A DNA stretch of 63,742 nt, the filler included, from Collodictyon triciliatum (taxonomy: Eukaryota): NCBI GenBank assembly GCA_043381765.1. It is 5 parts of 5 records of this genome, joined end to end, with 100 filler letters (N's around TTAATTAATTAA, not from the genome) between each part and the next. Parts side by side here need not be neighbours in the genome. Positions count along the whole stretch, not along the records: positions 44,623 to 59,389 come from JBHJMP010001779.1; 4 more parts are not named here. One strand, 5' to 3'. A program made the position numbers and the translations under genes. The stretch's first letter is position 1. Every line of letters begins with the position of its first letter. Below the pieces are notes generated by a model that was not told the origin of the DNA, did not search any database, and was given only the letters and a program-made list of their open reading frames with translations. Below are positions 2,814 to 50,967 of the stretch, piece after piece.

Positions 2814-4431
2814 CTAGTAAATTACTCTCTGTGACTGGAAATGAGCGAAAAGACCCTCAGATTCCATCTTGGAAACAACACTGACCAGAGAAGGAAGACT
2901 TCTATTTGATGCGTTTTTTTTTTGGCAGATGAAAAGAAGGAATAAGGGTTGTTTAGTTGTTTTTTTTTCCAAAAAATAAAAAGGACAAAAAGTCATAAAA
3001 AGATATGATAAAAATTCCAAAATGACACACACACACAAAAAAAAAAAACCTCTCCTCGGAGGTTGCAGGGAAGTCGGGAAATAACCGATTCATCTCAAAA
3101 ACAGCGAGAGCTTTTTCAAACTTGAGGTCAAACTCTGAAGCCAATAGATAATATCTGTTTAATAGAGCGTTATTTGACGGCATTAATGGAAGTGTTGTCG
3201 TCTTAGTGATATATGTTCATGGAAAATCATAAAATCGCCAATTATTTCCACAAAATAGAACAGCAAAGACAAATCATAACCACACCTGAAGACGTGAAAA
3301 GTCTGATTTCTTAATTATTATCATTTTAAAAAATTAATAGAATTTGACCTTTTTTTTTTTTTTTAAAAAAAAAAAGAAACTAAAACCATACTGCATAAAT
3401 CGCCTTCTCGATTTTTCAGGCTTTCCTTTAATCCAGCTGATATATGACCGAAATCGACCATGCAAAACACGGGCGAGTAGGAACACTTTCCCATACGACT
3501 TCAAATGGCCGATAACAGCAGCGACCATTCCCCATAATTCCATTGTCGATATTGCAGGATTTCCCACATTTTCTGTGTGGCAAAGGCCTTCTTCTTCAGC
3601 ACTCGCAACTGTTGACAACTCGCTACCAAAGCAATTCATTTCTGCCAATTCTAGTCCAGTATTCAACACAATATTCTGATTTGCTATGATACGATGGTTC
3701 GCTACGGACACAATCCGAGTGTTGCGACCAGACAGTAGTGATTTGCGTTTTTGCTTCATGGCTTCGCCGACTCTGTCTGTTCTCTTGTACAATTCCCGCA
3801 GAAAATAACACAATAAAACAGCGTGGACTGAAGTCACGTAAATGACCACGGGGTCGAAGTCAACTAACATGGATACTGCCTGAATTTGGAGAAAGTCAGC
3901 GAGCTTGTACACTAATTCGAATTCAACACCAAAATAGATAGTACAATGGTAATCATACGATGTCATGAAAATATAATGGCAAAATTACATCTTTGGCCAA
4001 GTTAAAGTCATTCTGGAAGATAGCAAGTAGAGCAAGTGTTGTGAGTTGGTCGAGGGCCTGAGCTTTATCTTCCAAAGACCTTAAAAACCCTTGATTCGAT
4101 AAGAGTCTAGAGAGCAGAACATTCATTTAAAAATAATATAATCATCATCCTAGCATACTGAGCGACACTTGCGTTAGCATGTATAAATCGAAAAAAAGAA
4201 AGGAAAACTGCATTAGATCACTTTTTAGTTATGGCGGGCTTAGACCCGACACGATATCGCAAATGCATAATTGCGAGAAGTCCATAAGCCCAGCATCGAC
4301 ATTGTGCATCATCTCTGATAACAGAGATTTGAAGGATGCGGTTCACATATGATATTGCTTGTACAGCACCGCCACGGACAGTGCAGATGAAGGACAAAGT
4401 CATAGCTATTTCAGCCTTTTTTTTTAAAAAA

Positions 4432-4466
<35 letters not shown>

Positions 4467-7400
4467 AGGTGATTAAATAACGATGATTGGTAACTCATCT
4501 AATAAAACGAGTCAGGAAAGCAAATAAATCCTACAATAAAAAATTTCATAAAAATGGAAAAGAGTAAATACATAAAAAGATGCGTCGTCGAAAATTCAAC
4601 ACTATTTTGTTCCTGTGATACTTAAATTCTTTTTTTTTTTTTGTATATCAAATTGTGATATGTTGCCTGCAATCTAAAGTCGTTCAGTTTGACAGCGTAG
4701 TCCATGCCGATAAGCAGATACGATGAGGAGGATTCCAAGTCGCCCATAGCAGCAAGAGCAAGACCAACACTTCTCAAGCCTGCAGGAATCCCAAAGCGTA
4801 CACTGGATTCAAAGAATACAAGGAAATTTGCTCAGCACAGCCAATTATTATTAGTGGTATATGGATTCAGAAATATATTAAAAGGGATTGCAATTTATTC
4901 TCCTGATATGATTTCCATAATAATGAATATATTAATTTACCATCGTTTACTGTGGTGGTGGGAAAGCAACTGATTTACTACTCGGATATATTTTCTATGT
5001 AATTGAAGGCCATTGATTCTTAAGATTTCGACTATTTTAAATTAGCATATAAAGATGAAAATGAAGAAAAGATGAAAAGAAAAAATGAAGAAAAAAGAAA
5101 ATGAAGAAAAAAAATGAAGAAAAAAGAAAATGAAGAAAAAAGAAAAAGAAGAAAAGAAGAAAAGAAGAAGAAAAAGAAGAAGAAAAAGAAGAAAAAGAAG
5201 AAGAAAAAGAAGAAGAAAAAGAAGAAGAAAAAGAAGAAAAAGAACCTCGAAGTCGAGATTTGCCCTTTCAACGCAGACACCAGAGCCACATTCCCGTAGG
5301 CCTTGAAAAGAATAGGACCAGGCGCTGCTTTTTCAGCAAAAACTAGCATCTTTAAAAAATAGTATACCACTCGCGGTTGGTCGCCGTTCCAAAAGGATGA
5401 TAGAGCCAATCTTTCAAAAGCAGAGGCCAAGAAATAGTTTTTCTCTTTGCCTTCGATTTGAACCCATGCATTCTTCAAAACACTGCTGACTTGGGCCTCA
5501 GCGCCCTGGTCAATATCATCTAATATGTGCGGGCCTCCCTCGGTATCAATCAGATCGGTTCTCAGGTGAGGAAGTTGGGGAGACTTCACTGCCCGTTCCA
5601 TCTCTTCATTTCTCGTGCTGCAACACACGCAAAAGTACTGAAACAATTCTTTGCTTGAGTCAATTATGTTGTTTAACAATAATTCGTATCCAGACTCAAT
5701 CACCACATAGTCCATTCCCTTGACAACTCGCTCAAAATAGCTTGTGAATAAGGATATTTATATGAGAAAATTAAACGCAATACTACTAATAATTACGAAT
5801 CAATGAAGCCGAATTTGAACATAAAAAGCTCACATCACAAGGTGTGGTTATCATACCCATTAAAAGTGACATACAATATTCAATAAACTTACACTGCGGA
5901 ATCAAATCCCAGTCCGATGAGAAATAAGGACTCCCCAAACATGTAGTCCCATTTGACTTTAATTTGATTAGGTATAGAAACTGAAAGTCGCTCAGCAAAG
6001 GCGTTCGCTTCGTTAATATTCTAATTTTTGTTTTTGAAAGGTCAGCTCTCCCTCCCCCTCTCTGTCTCAAAAAAAAAAAAAAAAGGATACGAATATGAAT
6101 TTTTTTGATTCAATGATTTTTTTCGAGACATATAAATTACCCTAATAACCTCTCGGCAACTACATGTTTTCAAGGCTTCAAATGCGGCCATATGGAAAAA
6201 TTCTAAAGGAGTTTTTATTTTGAATTACGGTCAAATAGATGAGATATGTCGATTCCCTCTTGGACTTACGAGGATAATTGAAAAAAGTACAGATGTCAAA
6301 AAAAGCAAAAAAGTGGAAATTTCCTTGTAGACAAACCAATAGACCGATCTATATTCTCGGCCTTGGAGTAATGATGGGCTAGCTTAGATGCATGTGGCGC
6401 GAGGTTCTCTTTGTACTTTGTTTCCAGAAGTTGGGCAAATTTTCTATGAACTTTCTTTCTCTGTGCAAACAATAACAATCCGTCTATACCAAAAAATTAA
6501 AATTAAATCACAAAAAAAAAACTTGAAAGAATACAAAAAACACATTCTCTTTTTCTTATTTCATGTTTCTGTATGAATGATAAAAAAAAAAAAATTAATA
6601 AAATCGATACATACACGCTACTTCCTGAATCATATTCATCCGAAATGAGTACACTCCTGGTCTGTTCACCGAGGTAGACAGCAATCTTGCATTTATGCAG
6701 TTCAGTATATTTTGGTATATCCCTTCCTTTTCGCTCGTGTTTGGATACACCGATTCCAAGTCCTCAACATCAAATGAGTTTCCAAGAACACTATGAAGAA
6801 AAAGCGGAGGGAAACATCCTTTGTTGAACTTCAAACTCTTAAAAGAATAAAGTCGATGAACTATATTTGTAGAACCTGGCCACTTTTAGCACTGTTGAAG
6901 CTGTTCCAGGAAGTTGGTCGATTCTCTGAATTATCTAAAGCAATAAATATGGTTTGATTAGCTGAACTTCCAAATTAAAGTATAAGGCTATATGCTCGCT
7001 ATGCACATATACATAATATAATAGTAATTTAGCTTCTTAGACAAACTCTGCTTGGTTTGAGATTCAATTTCAGAATTTTCATATTACAAAGTGGCATACC
7101 ATTCCTTCGATGTTATCAGGCAGTGACAAGTTTTTGACATTCAATTGGGCTGGAAGGAAACATGCCCGGTTTTCAATTACCACAGTTCGATTGAAAGTCA
7201 GAGAATAGCATAACTCTATCACATTATGTAAGCCAACGGAATTTTTAAAAGTATGAATAGTAGCTTGAAATTTCGAAATATACGATGAATAGTAATGAAA
7301 ACATATCGCAAAGATCAAGAACGGATAAAGTGCAACCATGAACGAACAAGGGATTTCCGTTGGTACGCTCATAGATCATGCTTTCGAGTTCCGGTGGAAT

Positions 7401-26482: not shown

Positions 26483-26598
26483 GCAGCATCGAACCAATCC
26501 CTTTTTTTCAACAGCAAGCATATAGGAACTAGAGACGAGCGAAGGTTAGACAGGCAGAACCGACGAAGCAACACAGACTGAACTCTGGGACAGCAAGG

Positions 26599-27765
26599 AT
26601 GTCAGGTACCGAGACACAGTGTCCAACACCTTTCTCTGCAGGTTGTGTCTGTATCAGATTAAATCTCAACTGCATTTTATTTTTTATAAACACCACAGCA
26701 ACAAGCCGTCTGGCCCGTGGCAAGTACGCCGACCTGCTGGACACGGACTTTGAGAAGCGGGAGAACATCCTGGGCAAGGGCGGCTTCGGGCTGGTCTTTA
26801 AGGCACAGCTGAAGGCAGGCCTCTTCGCCGTGAGGCTTGTGGCGAACGCGCAGATGAAAGCCCACGTCGATGGTTCAGACCCCGAGAAGGAGGGCGACAT
26901 GATACTCAATCTGCAACATCCAAACATCATCAAGACCTACGACTTCGGCTACCGCGGCAAAGACCTGCTCTATGTCATGGAGTTTGCGGACGGCGGGGAG
27001 TTGTGCTCACTCATCAAGAAGCAAAAGGCACTCGGAACCGATCTGACTCTCAGGTACGGACTGGACATCATCCGCGGCCTCGTCTACCTGCACACGCGGC
27101 CATGGCCCATACAGCATCGCGACATTAAGACCGAGAACGTCCTCCTTGTCAACGGCATCGCCAAGCTGACCGGCATCAGCCTTGCAAAGAGCGGCGTCTC
27201 GGTCGACTCGATGAGCTGGTTTACCCGCCCGAAGAACTGGTCGCCTCCCGAGGCCTTCGAGATCGGCAAGAGCATGGGGCTGCCCAGCGACGTCTACTCG
27301 TACGGCGTGGTCCTCTGGTCCATGGTGAGCGGCGAGTATCCGTATGAGGGAATGACTGATGGCCAGGTTGGCGCCTGTGTGACCAACGGTAAAACTCCCT
27401 CTATCCCAACAACATGCCCTCCTAACCTCGTTGCTCTAATCCGCAAGTGCTGGGAGCGAGACTATGAGACTCGCATCACTTCTCAACAAGTGGAGGTCGA
27501 GCTCAAGGGCATCATCAGCAACCCCGCTGTTGTCCCAGTTGCCAGGGCTAATCCGGTCGTGAAAATGAGTAATGCAGAGCTTGTACATTATTTACAGAGC
27601 AAGAATGTCAACCCAAGGCTTATCCAGGCGTGCAAAGAGAACGATATTGTTGGTGCAGATTTTCTCCTGCTGACCGAAGATGATTTAGGAGAACTCAACC
27701 CCGAGTTCAGTAAATTTCAAATCCGAGCTGCCCTATATCTTATCGAGGAGGCCAAACGCTGTTGA
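26599..27765 (+). CDS. Protein kinase-like (TKL-type) probable pseudokinase with C-terminal SAM-like domain
   Basis: GKGGFGLV G-loop, FAVR (Lys replaced by Arg), HPNII, YVMEFADGG, HRDIKTEN, KLT-GIS-LAK (DFG lost), WSPPE, SDVYSYG, CW...R; tail MSNAELVHYL..ENDIVGADFLLLTEDDLGEL. Likely one short in-frame intron 26606-26698 (ATGTCAG|GT...CACAG|CA). Confidence 0.85.
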   Translation: MSGTETQCPTPFSAGCVCIRLNLNCILFFINTTATSRLARGKYADLLDTDFEKRENILGKGGFGLVFKAQLKAGLFAVRLVANAQMKAHVDGSDPEKEGDMILNLQHPNIIKTYDFGYRGKDLLYVMEFADGGELCSLIKKQKALGTDLTLRYGLDIIRGLVYLHTRPWPIQHRDIKTENVLLVNGIAKLTGISLAKSGVSVDSMSWFTRPKNWSPPEAFEIGKSMGLPSDVYSYGVVLWSMVSGEYPYEGMTDGQVGACVTNGKTPSIPTTCPPNLVALIRKCWERDYETRITSQQVEVELKGIISNPAVVPVARANPVVKMSNAELVHYLQSKNVNPRLIQACKENDIVGADFLLLTEDDLGELNPEFSKFQIRAALYLIEEAKRC

Positions 27766-43300: not shown

Positions 43301-44405
43301 CTATCCCCTTATTGAAAGCGTCGATGAGCTTGCGCACCGTCTCTGGGCGAATGCCGCTGTGTCCCTGCACAATCGGAATCCACACTTTACCACAAAACTC
43401 GTAGGGAAATCATATTGATGTCTCAGATGATTGGCACCAGGGCTGTATACCTTGCAAAGGACATTCACTCGTAACACAAGGAGCATTCGCGCACGCTTCG
43501 GTACGGAGCAGGAGGGTTATCAAGGTTTTGGAAAGGAGGATATTGGTTGATTTAGAACGTATTGTGGAACAGGAGATCAAACTATGGAAAAAATCAGAAT
43601 AGAAAGCCTGGTGATTTGATGCCAGACCGCGAGATGAAAGAGGACACAATTCTTATTTGAATCGTAGAAGGTTGTCACGAGTGTGTGAGTCAAAGAAATG
43701 GCCCAAACTATGAGCTTGTCGGTGTTGAGTATACCTCGATGCTCAATGGATTCCCGACGCCGGCTGAGTGCGAGCGAATCAGATTTTCCTGCAGTGTCTG
43801 CAGCTGTTCAGGAGGAATAACAACGGATGCAAAGTTTCCAAAGCCCGTGTTAATCCCGTACGCCACCTGCATGAAGTGATATGTGTTCAGCAGTATAGGT
43901 AAATAATCTAAATCAAATGCATTTGCATATTGTCTCCTATTTTCTAATTCAGTGGGAAAAAATAAAGGAAAGTGACATAGGAAGAGCATACCTCCCCACT
44001 CTGGATTATGGCATCGACCATGAGCCGCGATGCTTTGATCCGGTCCCACGCGTCGTCCTTTATAGCCAGCTGCACAGGGCGGAGTGATGAACCGGAAAAA
44101 TACAAAATGAAAAGAATGAATGAATGTCTAATAATGTTGCTTGTGCATATAGTTAAAAGAAGAAGGGGGTGCATCGTGACACTCACACGATATTTAAACA
44201 ATGCCGCATCGACCAACTGCTCAGGCGTCAACGTTTCTCCGTCGAGATGCAGCGTCGGGCGTGTGACTTTGCGGGTTTTGGATGCAGAATATGCTTCAGA
44301 AGAGTCAGCTTCGCTCGATTGCGACGTGTGTGGCGGTCTGTGCTCAACGTCTCGTTTCCGTGACTCTTTCGGATGTTCGCTCTCGTCGTGTTTGTGTCCC
44401 TCCAT
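40337..44405 (-). CDS. HAL: Histidine ammonia-lyase (histidase)
   Basis: [36 protein letters not shown] (MIO-forming ASG), [76 protein letters not shown]. Confidence 0.96.
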
Positions 44406-44522: not shown

Positions 44523-44622
44523 NNNNNNNNNNNNNNNNNNNNNNNNNNNNNNNNNNNNNNNNNNNNTTAATTAATTAANNNNNNNNNNNNNNNNNNNNNN
44601 NNNNNNNNNNNNNNNNNNNNNN
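44523..44622. other. Artificial contig-joining spacer
   Basis: N44-TTAATTAATTAA-N44 flanked by poly-T and (TTTTTATTG)n. Confidence 0.97.
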
Positions 44623-45308
44623 TATTGTTTTTATTGTTTTTATTGTTTTTATTGTTTTTATTGTTTTTATTGTTTTTATTGTTTTTATTGTTTTTATTGT
44701 TTTTATTGTTTTTATTGTTTTTGTTTTTGTTTTTGTTTTTGTTATTTAGTTTGTGCTTGACTTCTAATATTTTTTACATGCTATTTCGGACGAAACAATA
44801 AATGTGGAAATTATATAAATGCAAATAAAATATTCATTAGTTGTAATATTGTCGAGCCATAATGCTACAAACCTATTGAAAAATGTTTAAATGATACATT
44901 ATACAATAATTGAGACAGGATTCCATTACCCCTCTGTATGTTTATGGTAACTGCTGCGTTTTGTTTCATCTTCGCCTTTCGGTTACCTCCGCTGTTCTTC
45001 AAAGCCGACAGTAAAACACTTCCGATGCATCAGCAAAAAGAAATCACAGACGATTTGCAACCCACTCAATAGTCTCGTGACTCCATTTCTTTGTTTCCCT
45101 CCCGTTATTTCTCCTTAAGCTGTTCTTTTTTTCCCTTTTTCTTCCCTTTTTCTTCCCTCTCTCTCCTTTTTCAATTTTTTTCCATTTTCCCCTCTTTTTT
45201 TTGTACTTTTTCCCTTTTTTTTCCCTTTTTTCCTTTTTCCTCCACTATGTTCTATTCGTTCACTGTTTTTTTCCCCTCAAGACCAGAGTTGTTTGTGCCT
45301 CAGAGGAA

Positions 45309-45610
45309 ATGTCGCTGGACGAGCTGCTTCGCTTTGCGACACTGGATTTCCGCCCTCGAAAGAAAACGATCGATCAGGCCACGCGGCTGGAAATCACAAA
45401 CGCAGACCTGATCGATATCCCCGACTGCATCCAGGAGTTGTCGCGGTTGAAGCGGCTGAGTTTGGACAGAAATAAAGTAAGTCAACCAATCAAAGGGCGA
45501 ACATAGTGTTAAAAGGACGCAAGCTTATGACTTTGCTGATCATTTTACCTTATGAATACATAGAGAATAATTTGTGGTTATACTCTTATTCTTATTTCAT
45601 TTTTACATGG

Positions 45611-45671
<61 letters not shown>

Positions 45672-48600
45672 GGTTACTAAAATTGAATCGTTTCTTCGTC
45701 TCACGATTCTGCTGATTGGAATCACTGGAAACGCAGATTTCAAACATACCAAACCACTTCTCGGTTTTGACCCGAATGGAAGAATTATATCTATCGAGCA
45801 ACCTGGTTCCTTTTTCATTTTCCTTTTCCTTATTTTCAAGGAAACACATATTCATTCAAAATGCTGCAATGAAAAGTCGATTTCATGTTTACTGTAGGCA
45901 GTATGCTGACTAATGTATCATCGCTACACTTATTCTTTTTGAGTCGAGCAAAGAATTACCAAAAAAAAAATAACACCTTTAGTTTACCCATTTGCCCGAT
46001 GCAATCATGTACATGAGAAGCCTGTGCATTTTATGGATAGACTCCAATCCTGTACAATCAGCTATATATTACATAAAATCCTAAATTATATAAGGAGGGC
46101 CGATTTGTATTTTATGAGATAATTTTTTGGAAAAGCGATGTTTCTTCCTTAATGAGGCATCTACGCTTATCAAAATCCTCCTACAAATGTGACATACTTG
46201 CTGTATTTAGATACTTCACCTTCCTGAATGGATTACTGGCCTGAAGTCGCTTGCTGTGCTCAAGATTTCAGACTCTGAGAATGTTGCAGTGGTATTCATT
46301 TACTTGATTAGCATATTATTTTTACACTACAATCCATGTAACGTGATTCTCAAGTACGGTATTCAATCATCGGCTTTGATAAATCATCATTTATTCTTTC
46401 TTTATTCGATTCAGTATGCTCCTACCATCGGAAAATGAATATTACCAATTTTACCTTTGAACAGTTGAGGAAAGCACCTCGGGGTATCACAAAACTACCA
46501 TGTTGGAACGACCCAAATGAAGGAGCATCTCTTAAGGAGCTTATCCTATACGACCAAACGATGTCATTCCATGTCAATGAAGGCCTTATATCTATCGACA
46601 GTTTAATTCCGGAATGGTCAAACTCGATCAAAATTGATGCGTCATGTAATAAGGTATTATATATTGAAACACGTATGGGACTACACTGAATTTTGAAGCT
46701 TATTTGAAGGAAAGAACATAAGTCACTGAATATTGTGTGTCGACTTTCAATAATACCCTTCTTTCCGACTCTACACCAGATTATGGCTTTACCGGAGTTG
46801 GTAACATCATTAACAAGACTAAAAGTTCTTATCTTGAGCCATAACCAAGTAAAAAAATTGAATATGAATCCTTTTTTCCTTTTTCCTTTTTCCTTTTTCC
46901 TTTTTCCTTTTTCCTTTTTCCTTTTTCCTTTTTCCTTTTTCCTTTTTCCTAAAATTAATTATACCTCATTTACCCTTCTTCATTTCTCAGATACCGGCCA
47001 TCCCACCAGGCATGACAACACTCGATAATCTAGACGAGCTCCATTTGGATAATAATCTGGTATTTTCTAACGCTCGGATAAAAGCCTGATCCCCTTTTCA
47101 TGATATGATAGTTATACTGCTTGAATCAAATCACCATCAAATTTACCACTTTTTTTTTAACATAGCTTACCTGGATTCCACCTCTGCACACTATGACAAA
47201 CCTCAAAGTTCTCAAACTTAGAGACAATAAATTTATTCCGGGAACTCAAGCCATCATGAATGCCTTAGATATGCAGTCAGACACCTTAAATCTGCGTGAA
47301 CAGTATCTATCAAATATCCCTGATTCTATCACATTGCTTCCATGGAAACCGTCTGATTTGGATTTGTCCGAAAATGAAGTACGAGTGATATTCAGATGAC
47401 ATCAGAAATCAATCAAACAATCAATATATTATCTCCTGCATATTACTTATTTCTGTAATAGCTTTCCGTCATACCAGACTGGGTCCCGAAGCTCACTTGG
47501 CTGCAAACTCTGAACTTGAACAGAAATAATGTGATTTTAAGATAAATTTCTGATTTAATTTTTAAAATTTTTTGGTGATGATGAATATCTCAATTGTCTA
47601 TGTTAAAGTTTTTCCGAAGACTATAATGATGATATTCATATTGCCAAAATAGATTTCAGATATTCCTTCATCATTTTTCCAGCTTCAGAGACTGACGCAA
47701 CTAAAGATGAAGGGAAATTCGGTATTGACAATTTCTCTTCTCTTTTCTTTTCCTTTTCACAATCCACTCCAATATTCTTCTGAAAATTAAGACTTTCTTG
47801 TGAATAAGACATTGATTAAATCGAAATCATTTATATCCCCTACTGTGTAGCCCTCAATTAGCTTTAAATATTTTAATAAGTAAACGACAAAAAATTAGTT
47901 GACACTTTTGCCAGATATGAGAAGTTTGACCCAGCTGAAGGTGTTATTGCTACATGAGAACCACTTTCTCCCTCCAGTCCAGCATTTATTGGATGCTGCT
48001 GACCTGACAACTGTCAAACTGGATGCCAAAGGAAAGAGCCTCTCCGAGTTGCCCAACATAATCGAGAAGCTTCCATGGAAGCCCCTTCACTTTGATGTCT
48101 CACAGAATCACGTATCATTATTTTTTTTATTTTGCACAATAATTTTGTAGTTTTAATATTAAAGTTATACTTATCTTTATTCAATTCCAACTAATAACGA
48201 ATGATATTCAGCTTTACACTCTTCCAGCCTGGGTCTATAAATACAGCTTCCTCACTCATCTGGACATTAGCGAGAACAAGGTAATATTTGATGCTCAAGG
48301 TACAACATCGTCAGTATTTGTTTTCATGATTTGGGCGATCGCCTCCATAAGCACAGTAGCAAAATAAAATAATTGAAAACTTTCCTCTAATAATTACCAT
48401 GTTTCATTAGCTTCAAACTCTTCCTGAATTCTTGACTTTCTTTTCGAGCCTAGAGGAATTACACGCCAGTTCGAACGAGGTTGTCTCTCATTCGATTTTT
48501 ATAATTGTTTAATCACTGCGCCACTTTTTATTTTTTCGATTTCTTGACTAATATAATAGCATTTTTGTGTCTTACAGATGACAGCAATACCGGACTTTTC

Positions 48601-50903
48601 AAAGATGAACAAGCTTCGTGTGCTTAATCTCCGAAATAATATCTTACCTTCCTCTGCGCAATTATTGTTAGATGGACTGAGCAACCTGAATGAAAAAATC
48701 GAAATTAGAAATAAAAACTTAGTAGAGCTCTCTGACATCCTTCTTTCCGTACCATATCGGAGCACCAGTCTTGATTTGTCTGAAAATCAAGTGAGTTTAC
48801 TTTTCTGTCTTCCATATGTCAATATTTTATGCATCAAAATCTGGGTGTTAACTTAGCATGCCTATCAAGCTCTCCGATTTACCCTCTTGGATTACGAGTT
48901 TGACCGATTTGAAAAGCCTTAATATAAGCAGAAACAAAGTAATTGATATCATTTTAATATCGCACTTAAATTTTATTGAATTCGTGTCAATCGTGATATC
49001 TCGTGAGACCTTGCATAATTTGAACTCCTTCAATGAATTTCAACAATCCAACAGTTTCAATCTATTCCGGACCATATCAGCCTGATGACTAACTTAGTTG
49101 AATTTCTTGCCCATGACAACGAGGTTTCACGTTATTTTCATCACTATTTTTTTTTGCTATTCCAGAATGAGTAACAAATTACTTCAATAGTCTATGTTCT
49201 CATCATCCCTTGTATTTTTATAAAGTTCCTTTTTTTTTAATTTTAGATCAACGAAATGCCAGACCTTCGCAGCTTGACAAACGTGCAAAGATTGTCTCTA
49301 CAAAACAACAGACTTCCTCCTGAAACTCAAGATTTTTTGAGTAATGCCAGCTTCACAGAGAATACAATCGATCTAAGTGTCAAGCGGATGGGCTTTTTGT
49401 CTGAAGACTTCTACTACATGCCACAAAAGCCAGATTTAGACTTGACGAAAAATAGGGTCGAATATGTTATCCTTAGCAAACTACAAATTGTCCTCCATGC
49501 ATTTTTGAAGATAATATTTTGCATAGCTGATTTCAAGTCATAACTTTTTTTCTCGAAATACAGTTTTCGCAGCTCCCTGAAATAATCAGCCGACTTACAC
49601 ACCTGAAGCGCCTGCTAATCCATCAAAATCCTGTACTGGCATATTTATTTACACATAAATGGGACGATCATAATCGTTTAAGGGTATAAAATGTAAGACG
49701 CATGTTTCTTCTGACTCTCAGAATGCATGACAGGTCAATGAACTTCCAGAATGGATCACGCTGTTGAAAAATCTCCAAGCACTGGACATTGTTGCACCAA
49801 CCGGAGCTGTATCTGTGGGTGAATTCCGTCCATGTATATTTATATTTTATGTACTTTTTTTTAATCCTATCGGCACCTGATACACACTTGATTTACTTAA
49901 CATGTGGTATCCAAGCTGATAGCGACGCAATGATGTAGGTAACTCGAGGTCCTAAAGGATTGCAATCCATCCCTTGTTGGTCAAATACACCACAGGGAAA
50001 AGGCCTGAAGATGCTCGAACTATACAAACACTCTGCCTTTTATTTCATTGGAAAACAGGTCGTAGACCTTCCAGGTGGTACTCAAGACTGGGTGGGATTT
50101 ACAAAGATGGATGTATCTGACAATAAGGTAGTATTTAGTTATTGTCTGATAATTACAAGTGGGCGTTATCATGTAAATTTTAAATTCATTTGTTATTTGC
50201 CGGGATTAATATTCCCGTTTATTATATAAAAATGTTTGTTTGGTGGAATCAATAGCTATCATCCCTCCCTGCTGCCTTAGGAAGTCTTAAGCAATTGAGG
50301 TCGCTGGTAATGAATCGAAACCAGGTCTATTTTTTATACTTTTTCTAAAATAAGCATTTCCTAAATACAAAATCCTATAAAATATTTAATTGTACTGATT
50401 TGCAGTACATTCTGTTTGAAAAAAAAATGCAACATAGATTACTGGTCTTCCTCAGTCATTCAGCGGACTTGCGTCCTTGACTGAAATCCAAGCGAATGAT
50501 AACTATGTGATTGTTAATCCAATAAATGTCGAGTCATACTGGAATGATTTATATGTAGAAGAAACCCCTCCGCCGAAAAAAAACCATGTTAATTAACCTT
50601 CAAACTTTGCTGTAGATATCCAAGTTCCCTTTAGTCATTACATCGCTCGGAAATTTGCTGTCATTATCGCTTTCATCAAACCCAGTACGCTCAATATTGA
50701 ATGGCGACACATACCTTTCATATTTCTAGAATTATTAACTATATTTGATACATAGTTAAACCTACCAAAATGCATGTATGAAATTAATGAACTGAATACC
50801 GTAAAACATGGCAAATAAATACATTTTTTTCACCAGGTCACAGATATACCAACCTCCATTTCAAGCTTAAAGAAACTCATCACCATAAATCTGAATAAGA
50901 CCA

Positions 50904-50967
<64 letters not shown>

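Follow-up and report, generated by a model that had tools for sequence, protein, structure and literature searches.

The gene and its features

The window analysed here, a stretch of 63,742 nucleotides from the diphylleid (CRuMs) protist Collodictyon triciliatum, contains a gene that runs from 45282 to 58239 on the + strand, beyond the stretch covered by an initial annotation. Its product has the domain order LRR-Roc-COR-DUF4062 (TIR-like NADase)-STAND. The features are as follows.

45280..45281, +, trans-splice acceptor AG with a pyrimidine tract before it; leader joined to 45282
45282..45476, +, exon 1: 27-nt 5' UTR, ATG at 45309, N-cap and first LRR (56 aa)
45737..45805, +, E2, a 69-nt cassette with a weak donor, from transcript contigs
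45983..46653, +, module type B, copy 1: E3 45983-46051 (69 nt), E4 46211-46291 (81 nt), E5 46465-46653 (189 nt)
46780..49456, +, four triads of 69, 69, and 210-213 nt, E6-E17
Triad 1, +: E6 46780-46848, E7 46991-47059, E8 47166-47378
Triad 2, +: E9 47462-47530, E10 47653-47721, E11 47899-48111
Triad 3, +: E12 48212-48280, E13 48411-48479, E14 48578-48790
Triad 4, +: E15 48870-48938, E16 49055-49123, E17 49247-49456
49564..50127, +, module type B, copy 2: E18 49564-49632 (69 nt), E19 49734-49814 (81 nt), E20 49939-50127 (189 nt)
50256..50905, +, four 69-nt exons: E21 50256-50324, E22 50438-50506, E23 50616-50684, E24 50837-50905
51111..52595, +, single exon with the last LRR, Roc GTPase, and COR (Pfam)
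52700..54074, +, end of the COR region and the DUF4062 (NIR/TeTIR) TIR-like NADase domain, five exons
54178..57332, +, STAND-like P-loop NTPase followed by a helical region; exon model from spliced alignment; Walker A spans the 54662/54740 junction and Walker B lies near 55312
57543..58239, +, last exon, coding for a linker rich in Ser, Pro, and Thr and for a conserved end of about 70 aa

The N-terminus in exon 1 is 50% identical to that of the ortholog in Diphylleia rotans. The conserved C-terminal end has no Pfam match and may be SAM-like.

A uniform array of LRR exons

The LRR region consists of 24 exons (45309-50905), of which 15 are exactly 69 nt long and carry a single repeat each. The other nine (168, 81, 189, 213, 213, 213, 210, 81, and 189 nt, each divisible by 3) contain irregular or multiple repeats, and the long triad exons (E8, E11, E14, and E17) are built as LRR, linker, and LRR. 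The initial annotation had counted the 69-nt exons correctly, and all six whose positions it quoted lie exactly there. Its further observation, that the LRR introns share phase 0 and one position within the repeat, also holds: all 24 introns of the region are in phase 0, as against 8 of the 19 introns modelled outside the LRR region (Fisher p 1.3e-5), and 22 of the 24 are located one residue past the motif Asn. The remaining two, behind E4 and E19, are preceded by 27-aa variant repeats that lack the Asn, and the register is kept. What had been missed is that the repeat unit spans several exons, namely 69, 69, and 210-213 nt four times plus 69, 81, and 189 nt twice. A phase-agnostic spliced model for the paralogs, which introduced spurious mini-introns in the linkers and also got parts of the window gene wrong, was set aside for qualitative use only.

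E4 and E19 share 11 of 27 residues, E5 and E20 share 17 of 63, and the long exons share 20-28 of 70-71 residues among themselves. At the nucleotide level, likeness does not exceed 57% between cassettes of this gene, or 62% between them and those of 60 paralogs, and blastn detected no homology of this LRR region. When one long exon was searched against the Atlas, the matches were generic LRR clusters. Judged from this low likeness and the lack of blastn homology, the cassettes of this gene are old.

Domains and likely function of the protein

The gene belongs to the Roco class: Pfam Roc (1.7e-15) is followed by COR-A (2.6e-10), both over the cut-off, in the exon at 51111-52595, the product of which is 63% identical to that of the ortholog. 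A near-length search with Roc-COR gave matches of only 22-35% identity, and the named ones were bacterial. The DUF4062 domain scores 55.5 bits in the ortholog (Pfam cut-off 24.7), where the same stretch matches the TEP1 chain 11gz_A at 1.7e-20, and the window gene keeps all of the residues that correspond to TEP1 F902, RWG, C959, and E1008. In the STAND region of the ortholog, AAA_16 reaches 35.4 bits (cut-off 32.6), and both NACHT (17.1 bits, cut-off 26.7) and NPHP3_N stay under their cut-offs.

DUF4062 corresponds to the NIR or TeTIR NADases found beside NACHT/STAND ATPases in TEP1 and NWD1/2 (bioRxiv 10.64898/2026.05.01.722283, 2026.09.04.749371, and 2026.09.21.753143), and here it likewise lies directly before a STAND-like ATPase. 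In contrast to TEP1 and NWD1/2, the domain is internal, behind LRR-Roc-COR, and no C-terminal WD40 or TPR repeats were seen; the words "Roc" and "LRR" do not occur in the main text of the NIR preprint. Several TEP1-like domains that retain the Glu have low or absent activity. The protein is most likely an intracellular sensor-switch-effector. Its long LRR arm would bind a conserved partner, assembly would be under the control of the Roc-COR and STAND modules, and the DUF4062 domain, as predicted from its catalytic residues, would hydrolyse NAD+.

The Roco family and a young kinase-bearing clade

The genome contains at least 91 Roc matches, some of them in short or broken frames. When no splice sites were assumed, a GT was found 3 nt past the Asn codon in 441 of 954 sense LxxLxLxxN hits across 61 loci, against 14 of 281 hits in the antisense control, and these loci had no antisense LRR repeats at 12 bits or more. 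The family has 371 cassettes in 56 loci; a candidate "E cassette" was rejected as a type, because it turned out to be the repeat that ends an intron-free exon.

In a young clade of kinase-bearing paralogs with Roc-COR identities of 84-94%, the number of A/B cassettes per gene is 0, 0, 1, 2, 3, 18, at least 9, and at least 14. Duplicated cassette blocks carry their introns along and are mostly 75-89% alike. The intron-free first exon (the head), a hypervariable part that the window gene lacks, has a concave pN/pS of 1.83 in this clade, whereas the values for cassettes A, B, and C are 0.28, 0.31, and 0.15; the excess of amino-acid change is confined to five concave positions of the paralog heads (152 N versus 22 S). 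Sequence comparison indicates that the cassettes of the young clade are under purifying selection. One tract, in L036, has likely been transferred between genes. A possible head swap in L051 is a weaker case, with four-fold differences of 0.44-0.65 to the kinase clade and 0.61-0.70 to its own sisters.

The initial annotation had supposed that diversification similar to that of the Ectocarpus LRR-ROCO genes may operate in this lineage. The young clade, with its changing cassette number and likely tract transfer, speaks for this, but selection favours change in the heads and purifies the cassettes. We suggest that the tandem duplication proposed below for the window gene would still run in the young clade, where it would make a conserved LRR stalk longer or shorter, and that binding diversity would come from selected substitutions in the intron-free first exon. 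On a wider reading, which we offer tentatively, about 90 Roco genes would form a modular system of intracellular recognition in the diphylleids, with the present gene as its conserved NADase-bearing hub and with spliced leader (SL) trans-splicing in addition; its intron-free, hypervariable LRR heads, variable-length cassette stalks, and Roc-COR-effector bodies (with kinase, NADase-STAND, or PH) would evolve and recombine separately.

Another reading is that the gene and its family serve ordinary developmental or cytoskeletal Roco signalling with no role in recognition or defence, the exon layout being a neutral by-product. The conservation of this gene across genera fits such a role, as do the Dictyostelium Rocos, which work in chemotaxis and the cytoskeleton (PMC11378527). 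We consider it rather unlikely, given the substitution excess at the concave positions of the paralog heads, the size of the family with its partly broken frames, and a NADase-type effector joined to a STAND module, a combination typical of immune proteins. It is less probable still that the variable cassette numbers and mosaics among the paralogs are assembly artefacts or separately assembled alleles. The genome is fragmented (14,576 contigs), many loci stop at contig edges, and two cassettes of L050 are identical; nevertheless, the duplicated blocks are mostly not identical (75-89% alike), the tract in L036 shares 81-90% with its donors, and four-fold sites differ by 17-27% between the closest paralogs examined, far above the strain differences (about 40 sites over 13 kb, introns counted).

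Fixed repeat order and splicing in the window gene

The D. rotans ortholog, a protein derived from a transcript, aligns at 863 of 864 residues with one 1-aa gap and is collinear across all 24 exons at 47% identity; the two genes pair with an SH-aLRT of 99 in a quick tree. Thus equal in both, repeat number and order have been kept since the split from D. rotans. Nine of 14 cassettes match best the ortholog repeat at the same position; in the other five that repeat ranks 2, 2, 3, 7, and 10, which may reflect old conversion among the triads.

The gene is expressed: contigs from the strain's transcripts were obtained in two runs, and a third run, X3, contributed none. They cover 13 of the 24 LRR joints, among the 15 of 39 joints listed, and shift the E4 donor to 46291. 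Their lengths, one exactly (1810 nt), fit all exons in genomic order. Neither the 13 LRR joints listed nor five ortholog isoforms, which differ by truncation only, show exon skipping, as judged from assembled contigs, which drop rare isoforms. One X1 contig keeps intron 2. A base missing at 53013 in one X1 contig would cause a frameshift ahead of the NADase domain.

The initial annotation had viewed the array as a substrate for exon shuffling or skipping, and had named a single isoform, constant exon order, and purifying selection at exposed residues as signs to the contrary; for this gene, the latter are largely what we found. The strain's LRR-region SNPs are 7 synonymous and 3 nonsynonymous, with none at concave positions, and concave-face residues are identical to the ortholog at 26 of 70 sites, compared with 36 of 126 other non-core sites, so that the concave face is not more variable. 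There are no spare LRR repeats outside the exons and no inverted exons in this gene, and the 20 repeat families listed for the interval 30000-63742 are all simple repeats, with no DNA repeats of cassette scale among them. That this gene is itself a diversifying receptor with skipped or reshuffled cassettes, as in the brown-algal ROCOs, is therefore very unlikely, despite the uniform intron phase, the changing cassette number among paralogs, and the rare isoforms that could escape assembled contigs; the old cassettes and the collinear ortholog argue against it.

We infer instead that the uniform phase would be the footprint of tandem exon-plus-intron duplication by unequal recombination, now apparently frozen in this gene rather than a working device for shuffling or skipping. 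Taken as a whole, it is highly probable that this is an old, single-copy, expressed Roco gene with frozen cassettes, a likely sensor-switch-effector product, and an SL-matured mRNA.

A spliced leader on the mRNA

The mRNA carries an identical loose 22-nt 5' end in both transcript runs. This sequence does not occur in the window even when 3 mismatches are allowed; it has 34 exact copies elsewhere in the genome, 18 of which have a GT donor, a stem-loop, and a TATA box and represent about 18 copies of an SL RNA gene. The leader is about 51 nt long, the Sm-like site consists of a non-canonical T5 run, and the genes are located near U2 snRNA; Rfam assigned no family to the leader gene and recognized only the nearby U2. 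All 64 environmental matches lie within 14 nt of a contig end, at mRNA 5' ends, and comprise 59 distinct sense-strand mRNAs; of these, the three leader transcripts mapped to this genome all begin right behind a genomic AG.

We regard SL trans-splicing in this lineage as practically certain, and the mRNA of this gene is most likely matured in this way at 45282. That the leader comes by cis-splicing from an exon within the assembly gap (44523-44626), or is a library artefact, is largely refuted: the gap is about 650 nt upstream and this mRNA shows just the last 22-24 nt of the leader, but 59 different mRNAs start with the same leader, all three mapped transcripts start directly past an AG, and 18 genomic copies have their own donor and TATA box.

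SLs have been listed in euglenozoans, dinoflagellates, nematodes, flatworms, cnidarians, tunicates, rotifers, Paulinella, cryptomonads, and eustigmatophytes (PMC7346339, PMC8570151). As in these systems, many mRNAs here share a 5' leader that is attached at an AG, the SL RNA genes are multicopy and have stem-loops, a GT donor, and an Sm-like site rich in T, and leader-bearing copies are dispersed. Unlike them, its leader sequence is new, and CRuMs are absent from these lists. Our literature search for SL trans-splicing in CRuMs found no report, and it has probably not been described for this group before.

Comparison with other modular LRR genes and implications

Brown-algal LRR-ROCO genes contain type I LRR exons (Zambounis 2012, PMC3341825; Teng 2024, PMC11378527). 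At the family level, the present system resembles them in its large Roco expansion, in having one LRR per frame-neutral exon, in recent paralogs that differ in repeat number, and in recombination between genes. On the other hand, the exons are 69 nt and phase 0 here and 72 nt and phase 2 in brown algae, which implies an independent origin. Unlike the Ectocarpus type, the introns hold no spare or inverted LRR exons, this gene has kept its collinearity between genera, and diversifying selection acts on an intron-free head, with cassettes at 0.15-0.31. Effectors (kinase, DUF4062-STAND, and PH) follow COR here, whereas the core layout in brown algae is LRR-ROC-COR (Teng 2024, PMC11378527). A known non-Roco array of 90-bp, phase 2 exons shares the uniform length and phase and the old and young age classes; its uniformity has been attributed to unequal crossing over together with clonal duplication. 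The present array differs from it in being part of a Roco gene, with 69-nt, phase 0 exons.

These observations add an independent origin of one-LRR-per-exon arrays, beside those of brown algae and Tetrahymena. They also keep a layout that permits shuffling apart from evidence of actual shuffling: one cassette layout appears frozen in this gene and active in its paralogs, where it would govern length rather than specificity. SL trans-splicing in CRuMs provides another deep eukaryotic branch, beside Amorphea, for the question of single versus multiple origins; the leader offers an immediate test in other CRuMs transcriptomes and a handle with which to pull full-length diphylleid mRNAs out of environmental RNA. 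Finally, an LRRK-type switch joined to a newly characterised NADase-STAND module may allow a direct biochemical test of protist immunity.

Exon layout of the LRR region

The LRR region forms the 5' half of the spliced plus-strand Roco gene of the window, and 24 exons (E1-E24; 864 codons in total) were traced there.

45309-50905, +, LRR-region exons
E1-E12, lengths in nt: 168, 69, 69, 81, 189, 69, 69, 213, 69, 69, 213, 69
E13-E24, lengths in nt: 69, 213, 69, 69, 210, 69, 81, 189, 69, 69, 69, 69
51111-52595, +, Roc-COR exon, directly after the LRR-region exons

As the initial annotation had claimed, the LRR introns (79-260 nt) are all phase 0 (24/24) and fifteen of the 24 exons are 69 nt long. 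Because the 19 introns in the rest of the gene mix phases (8 phase-0, 5 phase-1 and 6 phase-2 by phase-agnostic spliced alignment; Fisher p 1.3e-5), the bias towards phase 0 is confined to the LRR region. The exon lengths also reveal a higher-order build of four 69-69-(210-213) triads and two 69-81-189 modules, whose long exons are homologous to one another. Intron 2 (45806-45982) has a weak donor and an in-frame stop in its genomic copy, and it is retained in one contig of transcript run X1. Other features were noted in the window:

26533-27765, +, TKL-type kinase ORF (Pfam PK_Tyr_Ser-Thr, 3.6e-40), poor in introns and ending in a short C-terminal domain
43944-44400, -, head-to-head neighbour across an assembly gap; we take its translation to resemble the start of an aromatic amino-acid ammonia-lyase
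63100-63240, -, small GTPase exons, Rab-like by eye

A static gene

It had also been suggested that this gene may diversify by exon shuffling or skipping. Four lines of evidence speak against this, and the gene is static. Its alignment with the Diphylleia rotans ortholog (P0339) is collinear, covering 863 of the 864 LRR-region residues at 47% identity with one 1-aa gap; nine of 14 gap-free cassettes (single-repeat 69-nt LRR exons) score best against the ortholog repeat at the same position, and the other five rank 2, 2, 3, 7 and 10. The ortholog's four other listed isoforms are truncations. The transcript evidence consists of assembled, GT-AG-spliced contigs from two runs (X1 and X2) of one study, recorded as 'RNA?'. 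Of the 39 joints, 15 are listed, as are 16 of the 109 pieces, and the listed joints include 13 in the LRR region, each joining neighbouring exons; one 1810-nt contig is exactly the leader, E1-E15 and 61 nt of E16, and another carries E17-E24 in front of the Roc exon. Low-level skipping is possible, because assembled contigs lose rare forms. The 15 cassettes are old and unlike, with DNA likeness not above 57% among themselves and not above 62% to paralog cassettes. No homology to the LRR region was found by blastn, no repeats outside the exons of the gene, and no reverse-strand LRR repeats across 61 loci.

Nor were the exposed concave positions, for which a dN/dS check had been proposed, more variable than other non-core positions: 26/70 are identical to the ortholog, versus 36/126 of the other non-core and 84/126 of the core positions. 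Runs and genome differ at 10 sites in the LRR exons (7 silent and 3 replacement, none of the three at a concave position) and by 7 silent and 4 replacement differences in the Roc-COR and next exon.

The Roco family and its young kinase clade

The Roc query gave at least 91 matches among 97 candidates, and 60 of the 90 other loci were fetched, picked by rank and presence of upstream DNA. The cassette layout is general across the family: GT stands at the same offset after the motif in 441/954 sense hits versus 14/281 antisense hits, and 371 true single-repeat cassettes are spread over 56 loci. A quick tree with 69 rows joins the window gene and its Diphylleia ortholog as a pair (SH-aLRT 99), outside a 49-row clade, which has no Diphylleia member in the sample and shows a kinase in the fetched downstream DNA of 35/49. 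DUF4062 occurs in three other loci (L051, L053 and L069) and a PH domain in L074 and P0219. There are also signs of gene death, namely a 300-nt repeat (95% alike; L083 oriented 66-364, L041, L092) replacing the start of the first LRR exon of L083, and Roc frames ending at 150-180 aa in L073, L081 and L089.

L050, L060, L071, L072, L078, L080, L082, L083: young clade of LRR-Roc-COR-kinase genes; first exon hypervariable and without introns; A/B cassette accordion
L036, oriented 3065-3447: A-intron-B tract

In these eight genes (84-94% Roc-COR identity), the number of A/B cassettes before a fixed D-C pair is 0, 0, 1, 2, 3, 18, ≥9 and ≥14, counting clean 69-nt exons only. Their kinase has HED instead of HRD. 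L036 is only 61-65% alike to them in Roc-COR. Over 16-19 four-fold sites its tract differs from these genes by a fraction of 0.24-0.26; the corresponding values are 0.61 for Roc-COR and 0.74-0.80 for its other repeats. The tract has thus likely moved between genes into L036. It starts inside an exon, and the duplicated blocks of the clade (75-89% alike) contain introns. This pattern, though drawn from small numbers, is consistent with homologous recombination between repeats in which introns ride along as passengers. With weaker support than the L036 transfer, L051 seems to combine a kinase-clade LRR region (64% identical in DNA across 1447 nt, with 37% identity in Roc-COR) with a DUF4062 body. 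The suggested diversification by cassette recombination in this lineage is thus partly supported for the family, through its young clade (number change 0-18, L036 tract), and not supported for the window gene.

Where selection falls

In 38/60 paralog loci the most 5' LRR block, or head, is an intron-free run of 2-14 repeats; the window gene has no such block. We compared 24 intron-free repeats of the 7 closest genes along 22 tree edges, picked on codons other than the concave ones. At the five concave positions, the heads carry 152 nonsynonymous versus 22 synonymous differences, a pN/pS of 1.83 (bootstrap 1.37-2.57; uncorrected counts rather than a codon model, as for all these values) and 3.8 times the scaffold's silent rate; core positions give 0.20. 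The selection expected on the family's cassettes was not seen: the same concave positions give 0.28, 0.31 and 0.15 in A, B and C. The excess in heads and these low values therefore suggest that the cassettes make a conserved stalk of changing length, with binding specificity varying in the exon without introns.

Comparison with known exon-modular systems

The cassette layout by itself is a known way of building repeats. Brown-algal ROCOs are built from 72-nt phase-2 exons; spare exons occur in introns and in inverted orientation, exon order is scrambled, splice variants exist and the exons are under selection (PMC3341825, PMC11378527). In Tetrahymena, unequal crossing over has spread phase-2 exons of 90 bp (PMC6564038). 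As far as these descriptions go, the present family resembles both in that recombination alters repeat number, whereas it differs from the Ectocarpus system in lacking three of its defining features and in that the window gene is static. A literature search for Roco expansions in diphylleids found no such paper.

The organism and the C-terminal domains

A cytosolic HSP90 fragment encoded here shows 87% identity to D. rotans; among the other matches listed, one sequence is closer (97%) and the remainder reach at most 81%. The four best Roc-COR relatives are D. rotans proteins too. Since both point to D. rotans, the organism may be placed among the diphylleids (CRuMs), on these two markers rather than on rRNA.

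The 2409-aa ortholog carries LRR, Roc, COR-A, DUF4062 and AAA_16 domains, with NACHT below its cut-off, and the window gene matches it through to the C-terminus. According to three 2026 preprints, DUF4062 is an NADase of the TIR-like kind, most often found next to a NACHT/STAND ATPase; in one of them, some Glu-bearing members are weak or inactive. The ortholog's domain matches TEP1 chain 11gz_A at 1.7e-20, and the residues aligned with TEP1 F902, the RWG loop, C959 and catalytic E1008 (counted along the TEP1-ortholog alignment) are also present in the window gene, whose DUF4062 domain is a putative NADase. At 53013, in a run of A, a single base is missing from one X1 contig; the loss, either an allele or a contig error, would shift the frame before this domain, and X2 has no cover there.

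A spliced leader

In both runs, an identical 22 extra letters, absent from the window, stand before 45280. The genome contains 34 occurrences of a 21-mer from this leader.

Window 45280-45282, +: acceptor AG (45280-45281) and first base joined to the leader
G000:C3106:1352-1402, C4254 and 32 further places; L130-L193: other leader sites
L129 (G000:C4254): four spliced leader (SL) RNA gene copies in alternating orientation; U2 snRNA gene at 6472-6664
L091, L092, L094, L096, L111, L113, L115, L119, L121, L126: dispersed leader-headed element

Eighteen copies are gene-like. These have a TATA box some 30 nt upstream, an exon of 51 nt (as on C3106) and an AG/GTATG donor within a stem-loop, followed by a further hairpin and an Sm-like T5 site; some of them have U2 snRNA genes nearby. 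The other 16 have the same start, lack the donor and run into (AG)n, mostly followed by one shared element. In the dispersed element copies, the full leader leads on to an (AG)n stretch that differs in length between copies, and then to a 5' region that they share, which holds a long ORF (L096). The first base of the leader is T in 16/16 of these copies and A in the SL genes; the element is probably a retroelement with trans-spliced RNA. We infer the leader start from the boundaries of the genomic copies, transcripts showing just the last 23-36 nt.

A scan of metagenome collections gave 64 leader matches, all within 14 nt of a contig end, which lead into 59 distinct sense-strand mRNAs; the letters upstream agree with the SL gene. 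Reading the translations identified ribosomal protein L5, HSP70 and ATP synthase subunits among them. Three of the 59 mapped to this genome at 98-100% identity, and all three start directly after a genomic AG. By sequence criteria, leader addition is SL trans-splicing. Searching the literature for spliced leaders with Diphylleia, Collodictyon or CRuMs, with subscription papers largely out of reach, we found no report of SL trans-splicing in CRuMs, and the available parts of the SL lineage lists in PMC7346339 and PMC8570151 do not name the group. The value of this locus lies in the contrast between a frozen gene and its accordion-like relatives, in the NADase-STAND tail and, above all, in the spliced leader in a CRuMs lineage.
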